DNA of 57,179 nt from an uncultured Candidatus Saccharibacteria bacterium (lineage in GTDB: Bacteria; Patescibacteriota; Minisyncoccia; Phycocordibacterales; SW-6-46-9), in assembly GCA_964534365.1 (NCBI GenBank), contig CAZHOI010000004.1, forward strand, positions 1-57,179, read 5' to 3'. A model generated the notes under the pieces. The model did not search any database. It saw nothing but the letters and a program-made list of their open reading frames with translations, and had not been told where the DNA came from. A program made the position numbers and the translations under genes. Positions 3,966 through 49,016 of this stretch are shown in pieces. Each line of letters begins with the position of its first letter. Position 1 is the first letter of the stretch.

Positions 3966-4598
3966 ATGTTAATCCCAACTGTTATCGAAAAATCTACCTA
4001 TGGCGAGAGGGCGTATGATATTTATTCGCGATTACTAGAAGAAAGAATTGTATTTATTGGTGGTCCGGTCAATGATCAGATGGCCAATACTGTTGTAGCC
4101 CAGCTATTGTTTCTGGCCAGTAAAGACTCTAAAAAAGACATCAATGTATACATTAACTCCCCAGGTGGATCAGTAACTGCCGGGATGGCAATGCTGGATA
4201 CCATGAATTATGTAGCGCCTGATATTGTAACAACTTGCGTTGGTATGGCTGCATCAATGGGGGCAATACTGCTATCAGCTGGTAAAAAAGGTAAACGATA
4301 TGCCCTGCCTAATTCGGAAATCATGATCCATCAACCATTGGGTGGCGCCCAGGGTCAGGCTACCGATATTGAAATCACTGCTAAGCAAATCCTTAAGATT
4401 AAAGATAAACTGAACCGAATCCTGGCAGATAATACGGGACAAGATTTAGAGAAAATTGAATCGGACGTTGATCGCGATTATTATATGGGGGCTAGTGAAG
4501 CTAAAGAGTACGGGGTAATTGATGAAATTTTATACAGCAAAAACCCACTTGATGATCGTCTAAAATCTGATTCTGATCAAAACGAAAATATTAAGTAG
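3966..4598 (+). CDS. clpP: ATP-dependent Clp protease proteolytic subunit
   Basis: [28 protein letters not shown] (catalytic Ser), MIHQP (His). Confidence 0.97.
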
Positions 4599-6774: not shown

Positions 6775-7014
6775 TCATCCAAACAATTTCATTAATTCTT
6801 TTCTTCCTGAACTACTTTTCCACCATTTTCCCCTAGCTTTTGCTTCTTTCATAGCTCTGAATACTTCTGAATGCAACAATACTAGCGGAATTCTGTTTTT
6901 AGTAGATCTTACGTAACCTTTGTTATGTCGATCTAGTCTAGATTGAAGATCAGAAGTATAGCCGACATAAGTTCTAAGATTTTTTTTACTTAGCAAAATG
7001 TATACCCAATACAT
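6775..7014 (-). CDS. Small GIY-YIG nuclease-family protein (catalytic Glu apparently Gly)
   Basis: WVYIL..TYVGYT.DL..RL..HN.G...STK.R.P pattern; the usual RE motif reads RG. Confidence 0.8.
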   Translation of the reverse strand: MYWVYILLSKKNLRTYVGYTSDLQSRLDRHNKGYVRSTKNRIPLVLLHSEVFRAMKEAKARGKWWKSSSGRKELMKLFG

Positions 7015-7060: not shown

Positions 7061-7183
7061 CTCGCACAAAACTTGGAAGTTTGTAAGTTCGGGTCGCCAT
7101 AAGCGAACCTTGCACAGATTTACGCTGCAGATTGCGGGTCGCCATAAGCGAACCTCGCACAAAACTGCTAGCAGTTTTGTGCG
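7061..7183. repeat. tRNA-3'-end-like tandem repeats with hairpin spacers
   Basis: gggtcgccataagcgaacct exact at 7091-7110 and 7136-7155; ctcgcacaaaact at 7061 and 7154; perfect 28-bp palindrome 7156-7183. Confidence 0.8.
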
Positions 7184-7250
7184 GGTGGAGAGAATCGAAC
7201 TCTCGACCACAGCTTGGAAGGCTGTTGTTATACCACTTAACTACACCCGC
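7180..7250 (-). tRNA. tRNA-Gly (TCC)
   Basis: GCGGGTG..CACCCGCA acceptor stem, anticodon arm acagc-CTTCCAA-gctgt, TTCGATT T-loop; no encoded CCA. Confidence 0.95.
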
Positions 7251-7274
7251 CCACTTATGCATAAGTGGGCGGGT
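7245..7274. repeat. Perfect 30-bp palindrome overlapping the tRNA-Gly(TCC) 5' end
   Basis: acccgcccacttatg|cataagtgggcgggt. Confidence 0.9.
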
Positions 7275-7562: not shown

Positions 7563-7835
7563 CTATCTGTAAATATCTTTGCGTAAATCAATTGACTTCA
7601 AAATTACTTCGCTGTCGTCAATATCATAACGCAATCTTGCTTGTTTCATGCGATAACGCCACAACCCATCTCCCTGGGCGACGTTAGTAAGCTTTTTAAC
7701 TTTTGAAGAATTTGTAGGATTATTTCTAAGGTTAGTAATTGCCTTTTCAAAGTCAGACTTATAACAAGGATATTTCTTAAAGAATTTAATTGATTGCCTT
7801 TCAAAAGACTTGGTAAAGAAAATTTGGTATTCCAT
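7563..7835 (-). CDS. RelE/ParE-family type II toxin
   Basis: 90 aa, basic; WRYRMKQARLRY and terminal RKDIYR; directly downstream of the antitoxin. Confidence 0.8.
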   Translation of the reverse strand: MEYQIFFTKSFERQSIKFFKKYPCYKSDFEKAITNLRNNPTNSSKVKKLTNVAQGDGLWRYRMKQARLRYDIDDSEVILKSIDLRKDIYR

Positions 7836-7838
7836 TTG

Positions 7839-8090
7839 TTACAAACGTTTCAGTAAATCCTCAATTGGTTTTACTCTACCCGCCTTAATATCTTCATTCG
7901 ACTGCTCTATTTGGGCTTTGATTCTTGGATTAGTTGCATCCAAAAAATCCTCAAATTGATCAATATCAACTACCCCAACTACCGGATAGCCGTCCTTTTC
8001 AATAATTAGATGAGTTTTTTTAGTCCGCACTTCACGCACTAAATTTCCCAGTTGACGCCTAAAGTCTGTGATTGCAATTGTTTTAATCAT
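7839..8090 (-). CDS. Phd/YefM-family antitoxin
   Basis: I.ITDFRRQLGNLVREV...IIEKDGYPVVGVV N-terminal motif; start moved to the ATG at 8090. Confidence 0.8.
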   Translation of the reverse strand: MIKTIAITDFRRQLGNLVREVRTKKTHLIIEKDGYPVVGVVDIDQFEDFLDATNPRIKAQIEQSNEDIKAGRVKPIEDLLKRL

Positions 8091-8100
8091 AATGATCACT

Positions 8101-39636: not shown

Positions 39637-40271
39637 TGGCTGAACCCCTCAAAGCACCAGCGACGCAAAACTTTGTTCCGGTGAAAGAAATCCGTGATGG
39701 GGTAGTGATATTGAAAAATAATTCATTGTGTGCGGTATTATTGGCTTCATCACAAAACTTTGCCCTTAAATCCGGCGACGAGCAGACCGGGGTATTAATG
39801 CAATTTCAAAATTTTCTAAATTCACTGGATTTTCCAGTACAGATTGTAGTGCAATCACGCAAAGCTGATATTCGACCCTATATCCAAATGTTGGAAGAGC
39901 GCCTGAAAACTCAAACCAATGAACTGTTACGGGTGCAAAACTATGAATACATCCGATTTGTGCAGTCGTTCGTTGAACAGGTAGATATTATGAAAAAGTC
40001 ATTTTTCGTAGTAGTACCTTATAATCCCGCTATCGCAGACACTACATCAATCACCTCCTTGGTCAAAGGTAAATCAACTGATGATCAACTAACGCTCGAG
40101 CGCTTTGAAGAGTTCCGCACCCAGCTAAATCAGCGATTGGCTATTGTCGAGTCAGGACTTAATCGTTCAGGTATTCGCACCTTGGCGTTAGGAACCGATG
40201 AACTGATCGAGTTGTTCTATCACACCCTAAACCCTGCTGATGCTACGTCAAATGCCCCAGTAAGCAGCTAG
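39636..40271 (+). CDS. VirB4/TraC-associated protein (resembles the N-terminal part of conjugative ATPases)
   Basis: TQ.FVPVKEIRDGVVILK, S.NFALKS.DEQ, FLNSLDFPVQIVVQSRK.DI.PY; lies directly upstream of VirB4. Confidence 0.7.
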   Translation: MAEPLKAPATQNFVPVKEIRDGVVILKNNSLCAVLLASSQNFALKSGDEQTGVLMQFQNFLNSLDFPVQIVVQSRKADIRPYIQMLEERLKTQTNELLRVQNYEYIRFVQSFVEQVDIMKKSFFVVVPYNPAIADTTSITSLVKGKSTDDQLTLERFEEFRTQLNQRLAIVESGLNRSGIRTLALGTDELIELFYHTLNPADATSNAPVSS

Positions 40272-40378
40272 CTGCTTACTGACAACTAATAAAATCTGAG
40301 TCGCTTAGTGATTTCTTAGATTGTAAGTAGTTAGTTGTAGGTGGTAGGAGGTTAAAATTAGATGCTATAATTTTAACC
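40258..40378. repeat. Gene-less palindromic cassette between the 39636 gene and VirB4
   Basis: 24-bp perfect palindrome 40258-40281; nested stems; 7-mer array 40321-40348; 11-bp inverted repeat 40350-40360/40368-40378. Confidence 0.8.
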
Positions 40379-44716: not shown

Positions 44717-44769
44717 TAATTATTAAATTCTGTTAAATAACTTTGCCCAACCCTTGTTATAATCTGGTT

Positions 44770-46383
44770 GTGAAGTCAGTTTTATTTAATTGTTTTGTTT
44801 TATCATTTGCTTTGTTAGGGGTTTTTTCAGTTGTCCAGGCTCAGGATTATGCCGCTCCAGCTAGTAACCCAGTTTGTTCAAGAAATGTACAAGATGCAGT
44901 TTACTGCGCTGCTTTTGAACGCCTCGACGAGCAACTATATGAAGTGTATTTCAGGAACTCAGAAGCTTGCGAAGACTTTTGTAACGACACAACCTGTAAA
45001 AGCACGCCAGAATGTATAAACCTTGCCATTGAAGATTCTGGCACCACCCCTCAAGGACAAGCTTGCTTTAATGCCCAAAACTACTGTAGGGCGCGCTCAG
45101 AAGACAATTGTCAGGCGCTTAACAATGGAACCAGGGAAGTAAATTGTGAATATGTAGAAAATAGTGATCAATGTATTCCGTCTAGGGGTGAATGTGGGAG
45201 TTATTGTTATTCAGAGGTAGATTGGCAAAATGAAGTAGTATGCCGTGATAGCCGTGATGAATGCATAATAGAGCTTCTTGATGAAAACCCGGAACCCGGA
45301 GACTTGCGATTCCCTGCGTGTGGTTGTGATCAATCAAATGTTTCAGTTGAACAAGCCAATGGCGGTTGTGGATTACGAGTAGGCACCAGTGCCAGTGAGT
45401 GGCGTGAGGGAATCGGCGACGACAATCAATCTCTATTTGGTTCTCCAATTGATGCGTCATTCGAATTGGATGGATTCAAGCCGTTTGAAGACGTAAGGGT
45501 GGGGGATAATGAATTATATGGCGATAACAACTTGCCCGGCTTTATTAATACGTTTCTAAGCTTTGTGATTGGGTTGTCCGGGGCCATTGTGGTCGTCATG
45601 ATAGTAGTTGGTGGATTTCAATACGTGCTGGCGGCGGCGGCACCAGTTAAAAATGATGCCAAAGACAAGATTCGGGATGCCCTGATCGGTTTGGGACTAT
45701 TGCTGGGATCTGTCGCATTACTAAACACTATTAACCCACAGCTGCTAAACCTGGCGGGATTACGACCGGTAGAAATTACTATCACCGAGCGTGAGTTTCA
45801 AGGTGATACTGATGTGTTGCTAGGATTGGGTGGTGCAAATTATGGCAGTGATGCGGTGCAGAAGGCAATTTATGAATATGAAGCCAATTGGGCGAGCGGT
45901 ACAAAGAAAGAAGACGATGAATCTCAATACTCAATACTCAATACTTACTGGGAAAGTATTGGGTGGAACGAGTCTCAATGGTCACCATCTGGTACTGCAT
46001 GGAGCGCCGCTTTTATCTCTTATGTAACTGGTTTGCGAGCTTCAGCCCATTGGCAGTACATTAATGCAGCTTATGATGATCGGAAAAATGGCTGGGCCTT
46101 CTGTGAACCTAATGAACACGTTCCGCAACCAGGAGACTTAGTATGTCGAACCAGGGCAGGTGGCTCATTTACTCCTCAAGGAAGCTATACTTCACATTGT
46201 GATTTAGTAGTATCTAACAATGGAACCTCAATCGAATATATTGGTGGTAACGTCTCAAATTCTAGCTCTGAGGGCCGGGGTGTAACGGTAAATAAAAAGT
46301 CTAGATCGCTTTCAGCTGGCAAAACACCTTCATTCTTTAATATTGGCGCCTTAGTTCCTCCGGGTAAAAATTGTTCCGGCTAA
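44770..46383 (+). CDS. Pilin (TrbC/VirB2-like) fusion: Cys-rich domain + pilin + DUF2272/CHAP-like domain
   Basis: Signal peptide, 18 Cys, pilin hairpin (..MIVVGGFQY...AKDKIRDALIGL.LLL....LNTINPQL), C-terminal WSAAFISYV..P.PGDLVC..SHCDLVV..GGN; GTG start 6 nt after tataat. Confidence 0.75.
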   Translation: MKSVLFNCFVLSFALLGVFSVVQAQDYAAPASNPVCSRNVQDAVYCAAFERLDEQLYEVYFRNSEACEDFCNDTTCKSTPECINLAIEDSGTTPQGQACFNAQNYCRARSEDNCQALNNGTREVNCEYVENSDQCIPSRGECGSYCYSEVDWQNEVVCRDSRDECIIELLDENPEPGDLRFPACGCDQSNVSVEQANGGCGLRVGTSASEWREGIGDDNQSLFGSPIDASFELDGFKPFEDVRVGDNELYGDNNLPGFINTFLSFVIGLSGAIVVVMIVVGGFQYVLAAAAPVKNDAKDKIRDALIGLGLLLGSVALLNTINPQLLNLAGLRPVEITITEREFQGDTDVLLGLGGANYGSDAVQKAIYEYEANWASGTKKEDDESQYSILNTYWESIGWNESQWSPSGTAWSAAFISYVTGLRASAHWQYINAAYDDRKNGWAFCEPNEHVPQPGDLVCRTRAGGSFTPQGSYTSHCDLVVSNNGTSIEYIGGNVSNSSSEGRGVTVNKKSRSLSAGKTPSFFNIGALVPPGKNCSG

Positions 46384-46964
46384 ATCTTAAAGTTAAAGGT
46401 TTTGGTATCGGTACCAAATTCACTAATGTTATTTAGCTCTCTAGGGTGTTTATGCAAAACTATTTGATAGTTGCTACCGTAGTTTACACATGGGGCTTCA
46501 TAACTTTGATAGGATGCTTTTTGGGAAAATGATTCATTGTTTAACGAGCGGGCAACGACCTCGCCGGTGTCAATTGATTTGATATAAAATGACAAATAAC
46601 TTTGGTTTGAATAATTACTATAGGTTATTGGCAGGGGTTGGTCATTGCATTTGTATGCTTCAGACAACATTTTGCTTGAAATAGCATCGGTGTAAACGGT
46701 GATAAAGTCCGTGGTTTGGCTTGGATCACCCAATGATGCGATTATTATATTGTCACTTACTAATTCAATATCATTATTGTCTGGTTCAGCAATTGACTGG
46801 CTGGCAAAACCGGATTGATCGATGTCAAATGATTGGGTAGGGCCGGTTGTGTTATCGCCCTCCTCGGTAAAGCTGACTCTGCCAGTTTGGCTTAGAAATA
46901 ACACTATAAATATGCTTATAATGACCATTAAAACTCCGGTAATAATTAAAAGTTTTTTATTCAT
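46380..46964 (-). CDS. Hypothetical membrane-anchored protein convergent with the pilin fusion
   Basis: KKLLIITGVLMVIISIFIVLFL anchor; stop overlaps the pilin-fusion stop by 4 nt. Confidence 0.6.
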   Translation of the reverse strand: MNKKLLIITGVLMVIISIFIVLFLSQTGRVSFTEEGDNTTGPTQSFDIDQSGFASQSIAEPDNNDIELVSDNIIIASLGDPSQTTDFITVYTDAISSKMLSEAYKCNDQPLPITYSNYSNQSYLSFYIKSIDTGEVVARSLNNESFSQKASYQSYEAPCVNYGSNYQIVLHKHPRELNNISEFGTDTKTFNFKI

Positions 46965-47443
46965 TTACTAATTATAACCTTACGATCTGCACCAGTTCCT
47001 TGTGACTGTGAACTCAAGTCTTTTGACTGAATGTAGCTGTGCACTATTCGGCGTTGAAAGGCAGTCATAGGTCGCAGTTCAATCGCGTTATCTTCAGCCG
47101 ATGACAACTGCTTTATGGACTTGTCAATCTCGTCTAATAGTTTTTTAACCTCGGCCTCTTGATAACCATCTACATCAATCACATAATTCTCCAACTCGAA
47201 ATGCGAGTCCAGACTATGCGCCCGACACAACACAATTTCGCGCACTATTTTCGACAGGGCTTGCAAATTGCGTCCGTCCCGCCCAATCAATAGCGCCGAA
47301 TCCGGTCCGGTCACGTTATATACCACATGCCCTGGGATTGCTGATGATTCCAGTGACACGCGATAGTCCTTAAATCCCATATGGGCTAGCAATTCGTCAA
47401 TTACTCGCTGGATTGGGGGCAATTTCGAGCGTAGACGATTCAT
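46961..47443 (-). CDS. jag: Jag/EloR-like KH-R3H RNA-binding protein (short form)
   Basis: LLIGRDGRNLQAL (KH), L.PMTAFQRRIVH (R3H), S.G.G.DRKV. Confidence 0.85.
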   Translation of the reverse strand: MNRLRSKLPPIQRVIDELLAHMGFKDYRVSLESSAIPGHVVYNVTGPDSALLIGRDGRNLQALSKIVREIVLCRAHSLDSHFELENYVIDVDGYQEAEVKKLLDEIDKSIKQLSSAEDNAIELRPMTAFQRRIVHSYIQSKDLSSQSQGTGADRKVIISK

Positions 47444-47526
47444 ACCAGACAGTATAAACTAGCCAACGTTCAACATAAACTATATCTAGCTAATCTACTA
47501 GGATCACCCGCTTTTGCAAGGAAGTA

Positions 47527-47546
47527 TACTGCGATATATCGCAGTA
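47527..47546. promoter_or_regulatory. 20-bp perfect palindrome, copy 1
   Basis: tactgcgatatatcgcagta followed 4 nt later by tgttataac. Confidence 0.8.
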
Positions 47547-47651
47547 GTAGTGTTATAACTACATAATTTACTAAATTAGCAAAGTATTTAATCTTCTTAA
47601 ACCCGTTAGGAGAATAAAAACTAAGACGTAAAACCATTAAAGAATGATGGG

Positions 47652-47671
47652 TACTACGATATATCGTAGTA
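47652..47671. promoter_or_regulatory. 20-bp perfect palindrome, copy 2, over the promoter of the TrpR-like gene
   Basis: tactacgatatatcgtagta followed 4 nt later by tgttataat (extended -10, 47676-47684). Confidence 0.8.
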
Positions 47672-47694
47672 ATGGTGTTATAATAGATTTCGAT

Positions 47695-48099
47695 ATGCCT
47701 CATATTTCAAATCGTAAGATTTCTGATAAGGTCAGCCATAAAATTAATACTAACTTGGCTGGAATGTTCAATCACGCTGCAAAAACCAATAATACAGCTG
47801 CCGTGGTACGGGAACTTTTAACCGATACTGAACAGATTATGTTGGCCAAACGCTTAGGAGCAGTCTATCTTTTAGGTCAAGACCTTAGTAATTACAAAAT
47901 CAGTCAGATATTAAAAATGAGCGAATCAACCATTGCACGTATCGCGGTTAGTAGGGAAGCTGGAGCTTTTGACACCATTAAAAGTTTACTAAGTAAAAAT
48001 ACTCAAAATCAACCCTTTATTGATGTAATAGACCAAATTATTACCTTTTTACCCTCAAAAGCTAATAGAAAGTTCCGCGGTCAGATTCACAATAAATAA
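47695..48099 (+). CDS. TrpR-like (YerC/YecD-type) helix-turn-helix protein
   Basis: LLTDTEQIMLAKRL.A..LL....S.Y.ISQ.LKMS.STIARI; start set to MPHIS, 10 nt after the -10 box. Confidence 0.8.
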   Translation: MPHISNRKISDKVSHKINTNLAGMFNHAAKTNNTAAVVRELLTDTEQIMLAKRLGAVYLLGQDLSNYKISQILKMSESTIARIAVSREAGAFDTIKSLLSKNTQNQPFIDVIDQIITFLPSKANRKFRGQIHNK

Positions 48100-48127
48100 G
48101 CTTTCACAACATAAGAGTTCATAATAA

Positions 48128-48147
48128 CACTACGATATATCGCAGTA
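48128..48147. promoter_or_regulatory. 20-bp palindrome, copy 3 (hybrid of copies 1 and 2)
   Basis: cactacgatatatcgcagta, 28 nt after the stop of the TrpR-like gene. Confidence 0.75.
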
Positions 48148-48284
48148 TAATCGATCCATTTGTTTAGCTAATATATTAAGATAAAGCGACTTAACTAATC
48201 GTGGGATGTTTGACTCAGAAATTTGAAATGCCTCGATTATTTTGTAAAGCTTAGATAACACCTTGTCTTTATTGGTATAAATTC

Positions 48285-49016
48285 CTAGATATCAAAGGCG
48301 ACAGGGGTTTGGTCTTTGATCCCTCGCGAGCGAACGTAGAGCTCTTGGAGGATGTGAAATATGTTTGAGGTAACAAAGTACAGCGCAACCGCTGCAGAAA
48401 GCGTATAGGCAATGACAGTAATCACCACCGGGAAGACATATTTCATTTGTTTGATGATCGTATTCATCATTTGTTGCTGCATGGTTGCATCCGAATCAAC
48501 CGCATTGGCTGGCAAGGCGATCTTGGTCTGAATAAATTGGGCAATTCCGGCCAATAATGCTAATGGTATAGAGCGGGCTGCAACGTCAATCACGCCAAAC
48601 AACAACGGCGAGGGATTGGTTTCTGGTGCGGTAATAAATGAATACAGTCGAGAAGGATCAATTTCAGGCAAACCTGATCGCAATACAATGTAATAGAGGC
48701 CAAAAATTATTGGAATTTGTACCAAAATCAGTCCAAATGAAGAAAAAGGGGAGACATCGTTTTCTCGATATAATTCCATTAGCTTAATCCCCAGTTCCTG
48801 ACGATTGTCTTTATGTTTTTTTTGCAATTCTTTGACCTGAGGCTCGATTTTGCGAATGGCCTGTTGGGCACGAATGGCCTTGAGCGCAAATGGCAGCAGA
48901 ATGATTTTGACCAGGAGAGTAAACAGTATAATGTAGATCCCTAAATCCAAACCAGGAATCAAGTCGATTAGTAGTACCAATAAATTGTAAAGGGGCGTGT
49001 AAATTAAAGTATCCAT
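48285..49016 (-). CDS. yidC: Membrane protein insertase YidC (short, Gram-positive/CPR type)
   Basis: LGI.IILFTLLVKIILLP, QPQ-like EPQVKELQKKHK, LYRENDVSPFSS...LVQIPI, LYFVTSNIF. Confidence 0.93.
   Translation of the reverse strand: MDTLIYTPLYNLLVLLIDLIPGLDLGIYIILFTLLVKIILLPFALKAIRAQQAIRKIEPQVKELQKKHKDNRQELGIKLMELYRENDVSPFSSFGLILVQIPIIFGLYYIVLRSGLPEIDPSRLYSFITAPETNPSPLLFGVIDVAARSIPLALLAGIAQFIQTKIALPANAVDSDATMQQQMMNTIIKQMKYVFPVVITVIAYTLSAAVALYFVTSNIFHILQELYVRSRGIKDQTPVAFDI

Follow-up and report, generated by a model that had tools for sequence, protein, structure and literature searches.

A TrpR/YerC-family gene inserted between jag and yidC of a Saccharibacteria genome is flanked by three palindromes that are probably its own operators

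Results

A TrpR/YerC-like gene and three palindromes lie between jag and yidC

A stretch of 57,179 nt (positions 1-57,179, forward strand) on contig CAZHOI010000004.1 of an uncultured Candidatus Saccharibacteria bacterium (assembly GCA_964534365.1), analysed here over its whole length and referred to as the window, carries a plus-strand gene for a helix-turn-helix (HTH) protein of the TrpR/YerC family between the minus-strand genes jag/KhpB and yidC. The gene is accompanied by three copies of a 20-bp palindrome, which we call O1, O2 and O3 (copies 1, 2 and 3) for their putative role as operators (Table 1). O1 and O2 are both perfect and differ solely at the symmetric positions 5 (G/A) and 16 (C/T), and O3 is a hybrid with one arm of the O1 type and the other of the O2 type. 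O1 and O2 sit in a duplicated 41-nt unit of 80% identity (family D1 of the repeat search), in which 4 nt separate each palindrome from a -10-like element, TGTTATAAC behind O1 and TGTTATAAT behind O2, and O3 starts 28 nt past the TAA stop codon (48097-48099). The centres of O1 and O2 are 125 bp apart, corresponding to about 12 helical turns, and the distance from O2 to O3 is 476 bp. In their outer arms, O1 and O3 match exactly (TATACTGCGATATATCG, inverted repeat I1). An earlier sequence-only reading of this locus had described the palindromes at 47527, 47652 and 48128, the compensatory pair of changes between the two perfect copies, the duplicated operator-promoter unit, the third copy behind the stop codon and the antisense orientation of the gene within the rpmH-rnpA-yidC-jag order, and every one of these points was confirmed.

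The operators of the window read TACTRCGATATATCGYAGTA. Allowing up to 3 mismatches, the 18-mer ACTRCGATATATCGYAGT occurs at exactly three sites in the window compared to 0.05 expected from shuffles, none of 100 shuffles contained three or more sites, and no site beyond O1-O3 was found in the 57 kb. Likewise, the 10-mer core CGATATATCG has no further exact copy in the window. This conserved core bears only a loose likeness to the operator of Escherichia coli TrpR.

Table 1 Features of the jag-yidC region of the window
Feature	Position	Strand	Basis
jag/KhpB (R3H and KH domains)	46961-47443	-	library scan
O1 (copy 1), tactgcgatatatcgcagta / TACTGCGATATATCGCAGTA, perfect 20-bp palindrome	47527-47546	none	sequence, motif count, repeat search
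TGTTATAAC, degenerate extended -10 (putative P1, probably weak or dead)	47551-47559	+	sequence, 41-nt duplicated unit
O2 (copy 2), tactacgatatatcgtagta / TACTACGATATATCGTAGTA, perfect 20-bp palindrome	47652-47671	none	sequence, motif count
TGTTATAAT, extended -10 element (predicted P2)	47676-47684	+	sequence; start site predicted
Gene for 134-residue TrpR/YerC-family HTH protein (MPHISNRK...)	47695-48099	+	library scans, alignments, fold
ATAACA-16-TATAAT promoter-like element around O3, towards 3' end of convergent yidC	48124-48151	+	promoter scan
O3 (copy 3), cactacgatatatcgcagta / CACTACGATATATCGCAGTA	48128-48147	none	sequence, motif count
yidC	48285-49016	-	library scan

The protein belongs to an apparently Patescibacteria-specific family within the TrpR/YerC superfamily

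The longest open reading frame (ORF) begins at 47644 and was called as a protein of 150 residues, of which the family profile matches from residue 17. Homologues all begin with M-[PTA]-[HQ]-[VI]-S-K, and the window counterpart is the M-P-H-I-S at 47695. As the family alignments and the profile match begin there, we take this position as the true start of a 134-residue protein, which therefore places O2 upstream of the gene and not within it.

Domain scans of the window protein returned Trp_repressor and HTH_23 families only, and its homologues carry the Pfam domain PF01371 and the source name 'YerC/YecD family TrpR-related protein'. A profile built from 53 family sequences matches the YerC/HisR-type structures 3g1c, 3frw and 3kor with E-values of about 1e-11 to 3e-11 and E. 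coli TrpR with an E-value of 1e-5 in hhalign. The AlphaFold2 monomer model of the window protein has a mean per-residue confidence (pLDDT) of 76, rising to 80-92 over residues 11-90, and the top 30 Foldseek matches in the Protein Data Bank are TrpR or YerC-like chains with probabilities of 0.98-1.0, E. coli TrpR chains leading the list with target-normalised template-modelling (TM) scores of 0.63-0.78. Extra C-terminal helices (residues 93-133) are modelled at a pLDDT of 54-60. The recognition helix corresponds to approximately residues 77-88, and the motif LTxTEQIMLAKR is invariant. Members of the family most often have 147-150 residues; their N-terminal arm, M-P-H-V-S-K, is conserved, and some 50 residues are added at the C-terminus. 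Fold and profile both place the window protein in the TrpR/YerC superfamily. Searching representatives without an index, we obtained 4,107 matches at E<=1e-3, of which 1,850 had E<=1e-10, and as far as source names tell the family is confined to Patescibacteria. No second member was found in the window by tblastn and profile search.

In TrpR, the residues T44, R54 and T81 contact the tryptophan ligand. They align with the nearly invariant family residues T43, R53 and T79, and the residue equivalent to TrpR R84 is variable in the family. Two more specific assignments of the window protein were considered and rejected: it is not a HisR orthologue, from which it differs in operator, size and context, and it is not TrpR proper, for which the equivalog score fails and the operator differs.

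Paired palindromes bracket the gene in most homologous loci

Homologous loci (L-numbers; the window locus is WIN) were fetched from genome contigs (13), from metagenome contigs (42) and via a database homologue (1). In 39 non-redundant complete loci, we compared the two flanks of the gene, taking 125 nt ahead of the ATG and 165 nt that span and follow the stop codon, and scored a shared element of at least 14 nt. Such an element is present in 34 of the 39 loci with a median length of 22 nt, whereas flanks paired across different loci gave a median of 10 nt and reached 14 nt in 7.6% of pairs. The palindromes are specific to each locus, examples being CACTACGATATATCGTAGTG, TAGTTCGATATATCGAACTA, ACTATGATATATCATAGT, ACTTCGATGCATCGAAGT, AATGATTTAAATCATT, TAATCATGTATTAATACATGATTA and GTATCATA...TATGATAC. 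Their placement is tight: the proximal palindrome ends 1-27 nt ahead of the ATG in 27/31 loci, and of the 28 loci with a 3' palindrome, 25 have it starting at most 31 nt from the stop codon, which it overlaps in two cases. A third copy is present in WIN, L001, L004, L010, L013 and L023, and the spacing in L013 (123 bp and 475 bp) resembles that of O1-O2 and O2-O3 in the window. The search around YerC/YecD-like genes of other Candidate Phyla Radiation (CPR) genomes that the sequence-only reading had proposed thus returned a matching pair of palindromes in most loci, which, together with the TrpR fold, the YerC/HisR homology and the co-variation described below, supports its suggestion that the palindromes may be cognate autoregulatory operators.

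When the window and 30 loci (220 kb) were scanned for their own palindromes at 2-3 mismatches, all copies fell within 1.7 kb of the transcription factor (TF) gene. Furthermore, among 66 fetched loci CGATATATCG occurs beside TF genes only, and it is absent from L063-L066, relatives without the TrpR-like gene. On the strength of these motif counts, the regulons look like local ones, each regulator having one or few targets. The family gene occurs in many different genomic contexts. Within sub-clades the synteny is kept (L007, L026 and L030 before RNase H; the L010 group before lamin-tail-domain genes) while protein and palindrome diverge together, which argues for vertical descent.

The operator sequence co-varies with the recognition helix

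Sorting the loci by operator sequence revealed an association with the recognition helix of the adjacent protein. S-x-S-T helices pair with CGATATATCG or CGATGCATCG cores, STTTITRV with CATGTATTAATACATG, SL[TP]TIARV with ATGATTTAAATCAT and TR[IMV]T[VA]SR with GTATCATA...TATGATAC. T-x-Q-T helices pair with TGATATATCA in L009 and L013, members of clades that are only 29% identical. The nearest relatives of L013 (39-41% identical) are S-x-S-T loci, 3/4 of which have CGATATATCG sites. The overall correlation between helix and operator is partly due to shared ancestry; the repeated exchange of Ser to Gln together with C to T, as read from these alignments, would be the outcome expected of direct base readout. 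The fast joint drift of protein and site also argues for a very small regulon.

The 3' palindrome precedes diverse genes

Where the next gene is co-directional, the 3' palindrome precedes it. The genes in this position include tRNA-Trp(CCA) (L009 4538-4609, L014 6530-6603, L033 1030-1101, L044 921-993), arginyl-tRNA synthetase (L029, L032), a release factor (L002), serine hydroxymethyltransferase (SHMT; L001), RNase H (L007, L026) and lamin-tail-domain proteins (L010, L011, L036, L041), as well as LytR_C, LysM and DUF3160 proteins. In L010, GTTAAAATGATTTAAATCATTTAAAC is found at 3976, 4454 and 6057, once for each of three genes in a row: the TrpR-like gene, one for a lamin-tail-domain protein and one further gene. 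Every ATG is 15 nt from the palindrome centre; here the palindrome is clearly a reused promoter-operator unit of a small local regulon. A 'trp repressor' gene has been reported to head tRNA-Trp(A73)/TrpRS-A operons in CPR bacteria (PMC5370408), and the tRNA-Trp loci agree with these operons. Family members at the tRNA-Trp loci may be true tryptophan sensors. The 3' palindrome is equally tightly placed before convergent genes, namely in the window and in L003, L005, L022/L027, L024, L043/L053 and L062, and therefore has a further role tied to the regulator gene itself.

O2 overlaps a predicted promoter with a very short leader

The element TGTTATAAT behind O2 is a perfect extended -10 element that ends 10 nt ahead of the ATG, and there is no Shine-Dalgarno sequence between the two. 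A start site about 7 nt past TGTTATAAT, as this spacing suggests, would give a leader of 3-4 nt and thus a near-leaderless mRNA, and O2 would cover about -39 to -20 of P2, that is its -35/spacer region. A motif of the form TGnTAnnnT stands 6-12 nt ahead of the ATG in nine loci (the window and eight homologous ones). The promoter of the first unit is probably a decayed duplicate, judged by its degenerate element, and its operator O1 is still perfect. The ATAACA-16-TATAAT element at O3 is the sole site reported in 47300-48400; as the scan it comes from was not above chance, we attach little weight to it and its role is uncertain.

In ordinary ORFs of the fetched loci, TGnTAnnnT was also observed 4-12 nt before the first ATG in 11 of 85 cases. 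In these Patescibacteria, mRNAs with no leader or almost none may be common.

The cassette is a lineage-specific addition beside the replication-origin genes

Beyond yidC, the minus strand continues with rnpA and rpmH, followed by dnaA and dnaN, and by virtue of these rpmH-rnpA-yidC-jag, dnaA and dnaN neighbours the locus adjoins the replication-origin gene cluster. The window gene has no tRNA or aminoacyl-tRNA synthetase neighbour, and no his genes lie beside the cassette. Relatives with a YidC 70-74% identical keep the synteny dnaN-dnaA/rpmH-rnpA-yidC-jag-pilin-like, and the comparison with relatives in which jag abuts yidC, likewise proposed in the sequence-only reading, could be made with L066, where jag follows yidC after 59 nt with no gene between. 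In L063 the spacer of 252 nt holds no gene, and in L064 (4294-4569) and L065 (1988-2263) it holds a 91-residue GIY-YIG gene. The TrpR-like cassette is a lineage-specific addition to a variable yidC-jag spacer, where small accessory genes seem to land. The spacers of the relatives are unalignable with the window flanks, leaving the insertion boundaries undefined; compared to the empty site, about 137 nt of extra non-coding DNA lie outside O3 and about 83 nt outside O1. Five other assemblies of the same species carry an identical cassette and hence provide no population-level signal.

An origin from a phage or a defence system was rejected: a scan with the family alignment found no relatives in viral contigs, three family members tested had no match in PHROG, and the window protein had none in PADLOC. 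L003 gave one weak CARF match. Weak repeats of TF-gene pieces in 48152-48284 (D2, D6; tblastn E=1.6) are probably noise and could be a decayed remnant.

Other features of the window

A large plus-strand ORF at 44743-46383, with a weak T4SS_pilin match and a DUF2272 domain, adjoins the oriC gene cluster in a neighbourhood that is conserved in L063 and L064. A 24-nt perfect palindrome, CAGTAAGCAGCTAGCTGCTTACTG, lies at 40258-40281, where a coding stretch appears to end, and no run of T follows it. The ends of the minus-strand tRNA-Gly(TCC) at 7179-7250 are overlapped by perfect palindromes of 28 nt (7156-7183) and 30 nt (7245-7274), and near this tRNA, within 7091-7274, a direct repeat of about 27 nt is found at about 7091 and 7137. 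On the minus strand, a 79-residue ORF at 6775-7014 resembles a GIY-YIG nuclease by eye, and adjacent ORFs of 90 and 86 residues at 7563-8099 resemble, again by eye, a toxin-antitoxin pair of the RelE/ParE and Phd/YefM types.

Discussion

We consider it likely that the TrpR/YerC-type protein is a local regulator that represses its own gene, and that the three palindromes are its cognate operators. In such a mechanism, the dimeric HTH protein would bind O2 over P2 and exclude RNA polymerase, so that the gene represses itself. O1 would most likely be an auxiliary, cooperative site originating from the duplicated and decayed promoter unit, and O3 would represent the family-typical 3' flanking operator, which in loci with a co-directional next gene may serve as promoter and operator of that gene. 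In the window, where the gene and yidC are convergent, O3 would more likely act as an auxiliary operator that loops with O2 over 476 bp, as a protein roadblock, or as both. Such a roadblock at O3 would insulate the antisense cassette from read-through from yidC to jag, and jag expression would then depend on the repressor. By analogy with known looping systems, DNA looping by O1-O3 is plausible, and the C-terminal extension, which is modelled with low confidence, is a candidate for bridging the operators. A small-molecule corepressor may be involved.

Several observations weigh against this interpretation. Taken alone, the window protein scores 22.8 bits (E=1e-4) with Pfam Trp_repressor (PF01371), below the gathering cut-off of 27, and 13.9 bits (E=0.054) with the TrpR equivalog TIGR01321, whose cut-off is 67.25. 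In the sigma-70 consensus scan, the region gave 1 site where chance would give 4.2, and thus no enrichment, and the TATAAC of the first unit lacks the conserved final T. A Shine-Dalgarno-like motif precedes only 2 of 39 TF genes, but control ORFs in the fetched loci also often go without one (19/85, or 22%, have it), and for this reason a leaderless mRNA is modestly supported. No helical phasing is seen in the distances between operators (423-593 bp), which therefore lend looping no specific support, and O3 differs in geometry from O1 and O2. The motif counts cover only 57 kb of this genome, so that distant targets are possible. Finally, the palindromes are longer and more perfect than the footprint of a dimer needs, with arms of up to 17-20 nt, and at positions 10-16 those nucleotides that differ between copies of one locus are still symmetric in 40-57% of cases, a value that drops to about 20% at positions 20-22 from the centre.

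The excess symmetry might reflect a hairpin or cruciform role, extra half-sites, which are visible in L007, or neutral quasipalindrome correction. The palindromes could accordingly be mainly hairpins, either RNA stem-loops that terminate, stabilise or insulate transcripts or DNA cruciforms, with the neighbouring protein a secondary reader or no reader at all. Besides the long arms and the persistent symmetry, of which the symmetric pair of differences between O1 and O2 is an instance, their position at gene boundaries would fit such a role, and in the convergent context of L024 the space from one stop codon to the other is taken up by the palindrome. As RNA, the palindromes form stems of -9 to -11 kcal/mol (z about -2), modestly better than shuffles, and O3 pairs fully only as minus-strand RNA, by means of a G-U pair (-14.8 versus -4.2 kcal/mol, a single data point), the minus strand being the strand of any read-through from yidC to jag. 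However, no U-tracts follow the palindromes, an Rfam search of 47300-48400 at E<=1 gave no match, and RNA folding showed no structure in the 146-nt spacer from O3 to yidC. The 5' copy would moreover lie upstream of the inferred start site and be untranscribed, the core of about 18-20 bp has the size of a TrpR-family operator, and the locus-specific sequence tracks the adjacent recognition helix, unlike a generic hairpin. Perfect symmetry can also arise neutrally through template-switching quasipalindrome correction. Hence we regard a primarily structural role as unlikely.

Less probable still is the other possibility raised by the sequence-only reading, a minimal mobile cassette that carries the HTH gene and has the palindromes as its terminal repeats. 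The variety of genomic contexts, the state of the yidC-jag spacer in relatives (no gene in L066 and L063, a GIY-YIG gene in L064/L065) and the identical outer arms of O1 and O3 would be in line with mobility, as would a 49-nt terminator-like hairpin direct repeat in L003 (3706-3754 and 4456-4504, 76% identical) that brackets the whole cassette. The 134-residue protein, however, has a TrpR fold, and library and fold searches detected no transposase, recombinase, nuclease or HUH domain in it. The cassette is present as one copy in the 57 kb with no paralogue, no direct repeat abuts O1 or O3 as a target-site duplication, and the extra 137 and 83 nt outside the palindromes indicate that these are not the insertion boundaries. 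Vertical descent, as indicated by the sub-clade synteny, and the lack of relatives in viral contigs point the same way, and we found no positive evidence for this proposal. That the palindromes are functionless or serve a different, unlinked factor, their proximity to the gene being incidental, is very unlikely: their binder is a predicted one, but different palindromes are linked to the gene in 34/39 loci, chance would supply 0.05 sites in the window, and the palindromes co-vary with the adjacent protein.

Returning to the reading as cognate operators, the closest solved relatives by profile are the HisR/YerC proteins, the histidine repressors of Firmicutes, which share the fold and a 20-bp palindromic operator. 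HisR/YerC proteins bind 20-bp palindromes of lineage-specific sequence, including a site at their own gene, and the HisR consensus cacTTTA-N6-TAAAgtg lies upstream of his or yuiF genes (PMC9413887). HisR is shorter than 100 residues, whereas the window family has 134-150 residues with the N-terminal arm and the additional C-terminal residues; its operator differs from the CGATATATCG-type cores found here, the window cassette has no his genes beside it, and a second operator right behind the stop codon is undescribed for HisR. E. coli TrpR resembles the window protein in fold, in the alignment of ligand contacts, in its palindrome of about 20 bp and in autorepression through an operator in the core promoter, which is here predicted. 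It differs in that the identity is 16-20%, the operator reads GTACT-N8-AGTAC rather than TACT-N12-AGTA, trpR has a single operator rather than a bracketing pair or triplet, and the equivalent of R84 varies.

Several operators around a promoter or gene, with one auxiliary site some 125 bp upstream and another several hundred bp downstream, recall lac O1-O2/O3, gal OE-OI and lambda CI OL-OR. These belong to other protein families, and the loop, which is proposed here by analogy only, would enclose exactly one small gene. The leaderless repressor mRNA transcribed from PRM for lambda cI offers a further analogy, and only that, to the near-leaderless mRNA predicted here. The 'trp repressor' genes described at CPR tRNA-Trp/TrpRS-A loci (PMC5370408) belong to the same protein family, and L009, L014, L033 and L044 have tRNA-Trp right behind the 3' palindrome; that description concerns gene order only and does not cover operators, bracketing or the breadth of the family, and the window gene differs in its neighbours. 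REPtrons and IS200/IS605 elements likewise have a small gene between palindromic repeats, but RAYT/TnpA are HUH-Y1 enzymes and REPs occur genome-wide, whereas here the protein has a repressor fold and the copies stand only at the gene. Literature searches aimed at the CPR retrieved no study of its TrpR-like proteins and no paper on their operators or the bracketing layout, and a gene-bracketing operator layout is not known to have been described for TrpR, HisR or YerC.

Transcription control in the CPR is almost unknown. The loci analysed here yield about 40 concrete protein-operator pairs with predicted promoters, all open to tests in vitro or in E. coli that do not require cultures of the hosts, and a checkable recognition rule. 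The rule predicts that the exchange S78Q in the window protein shifts its preference from ACGATATATCGT to ATGATATATCAT, as in L009/L013. The pairs also offer a lead on how reduced genomes regulate tRNA-Trp, arginyl-tRNA synthetase, a release factor, SHMT and surface proteins. For jag, the arrangement in the window suggests a separation from the rpmH-rnpA-yidC operon beside oriC, brought about by the insertion of a self-regulated repressor cassette.

The same pattern extends across a large and unstudied family of regulators. More speculatively, and with considerable reservation, we hypothesise that this design is shared by small TrpR-like sensors of Patescibacteria, which number some 1,850 clusters (50% identity) or more, each gene being enclosed by two to three perfect palindromes that serve as operators and also as promoters of leaderless transcripts. 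The protein would bridge these sites into a small repression loop or insulated domain, perhaps by its family-specific C-terminal helices, and would control one neighbour in response to an amino-acid-like ligand; with so few sites per regulator, protein and site would drift together quickly. If this were true, the family would constitute a natural library of orthogonal repressor-operator pairs with a readable code, of which Ser to Gln with C to T would be one example.

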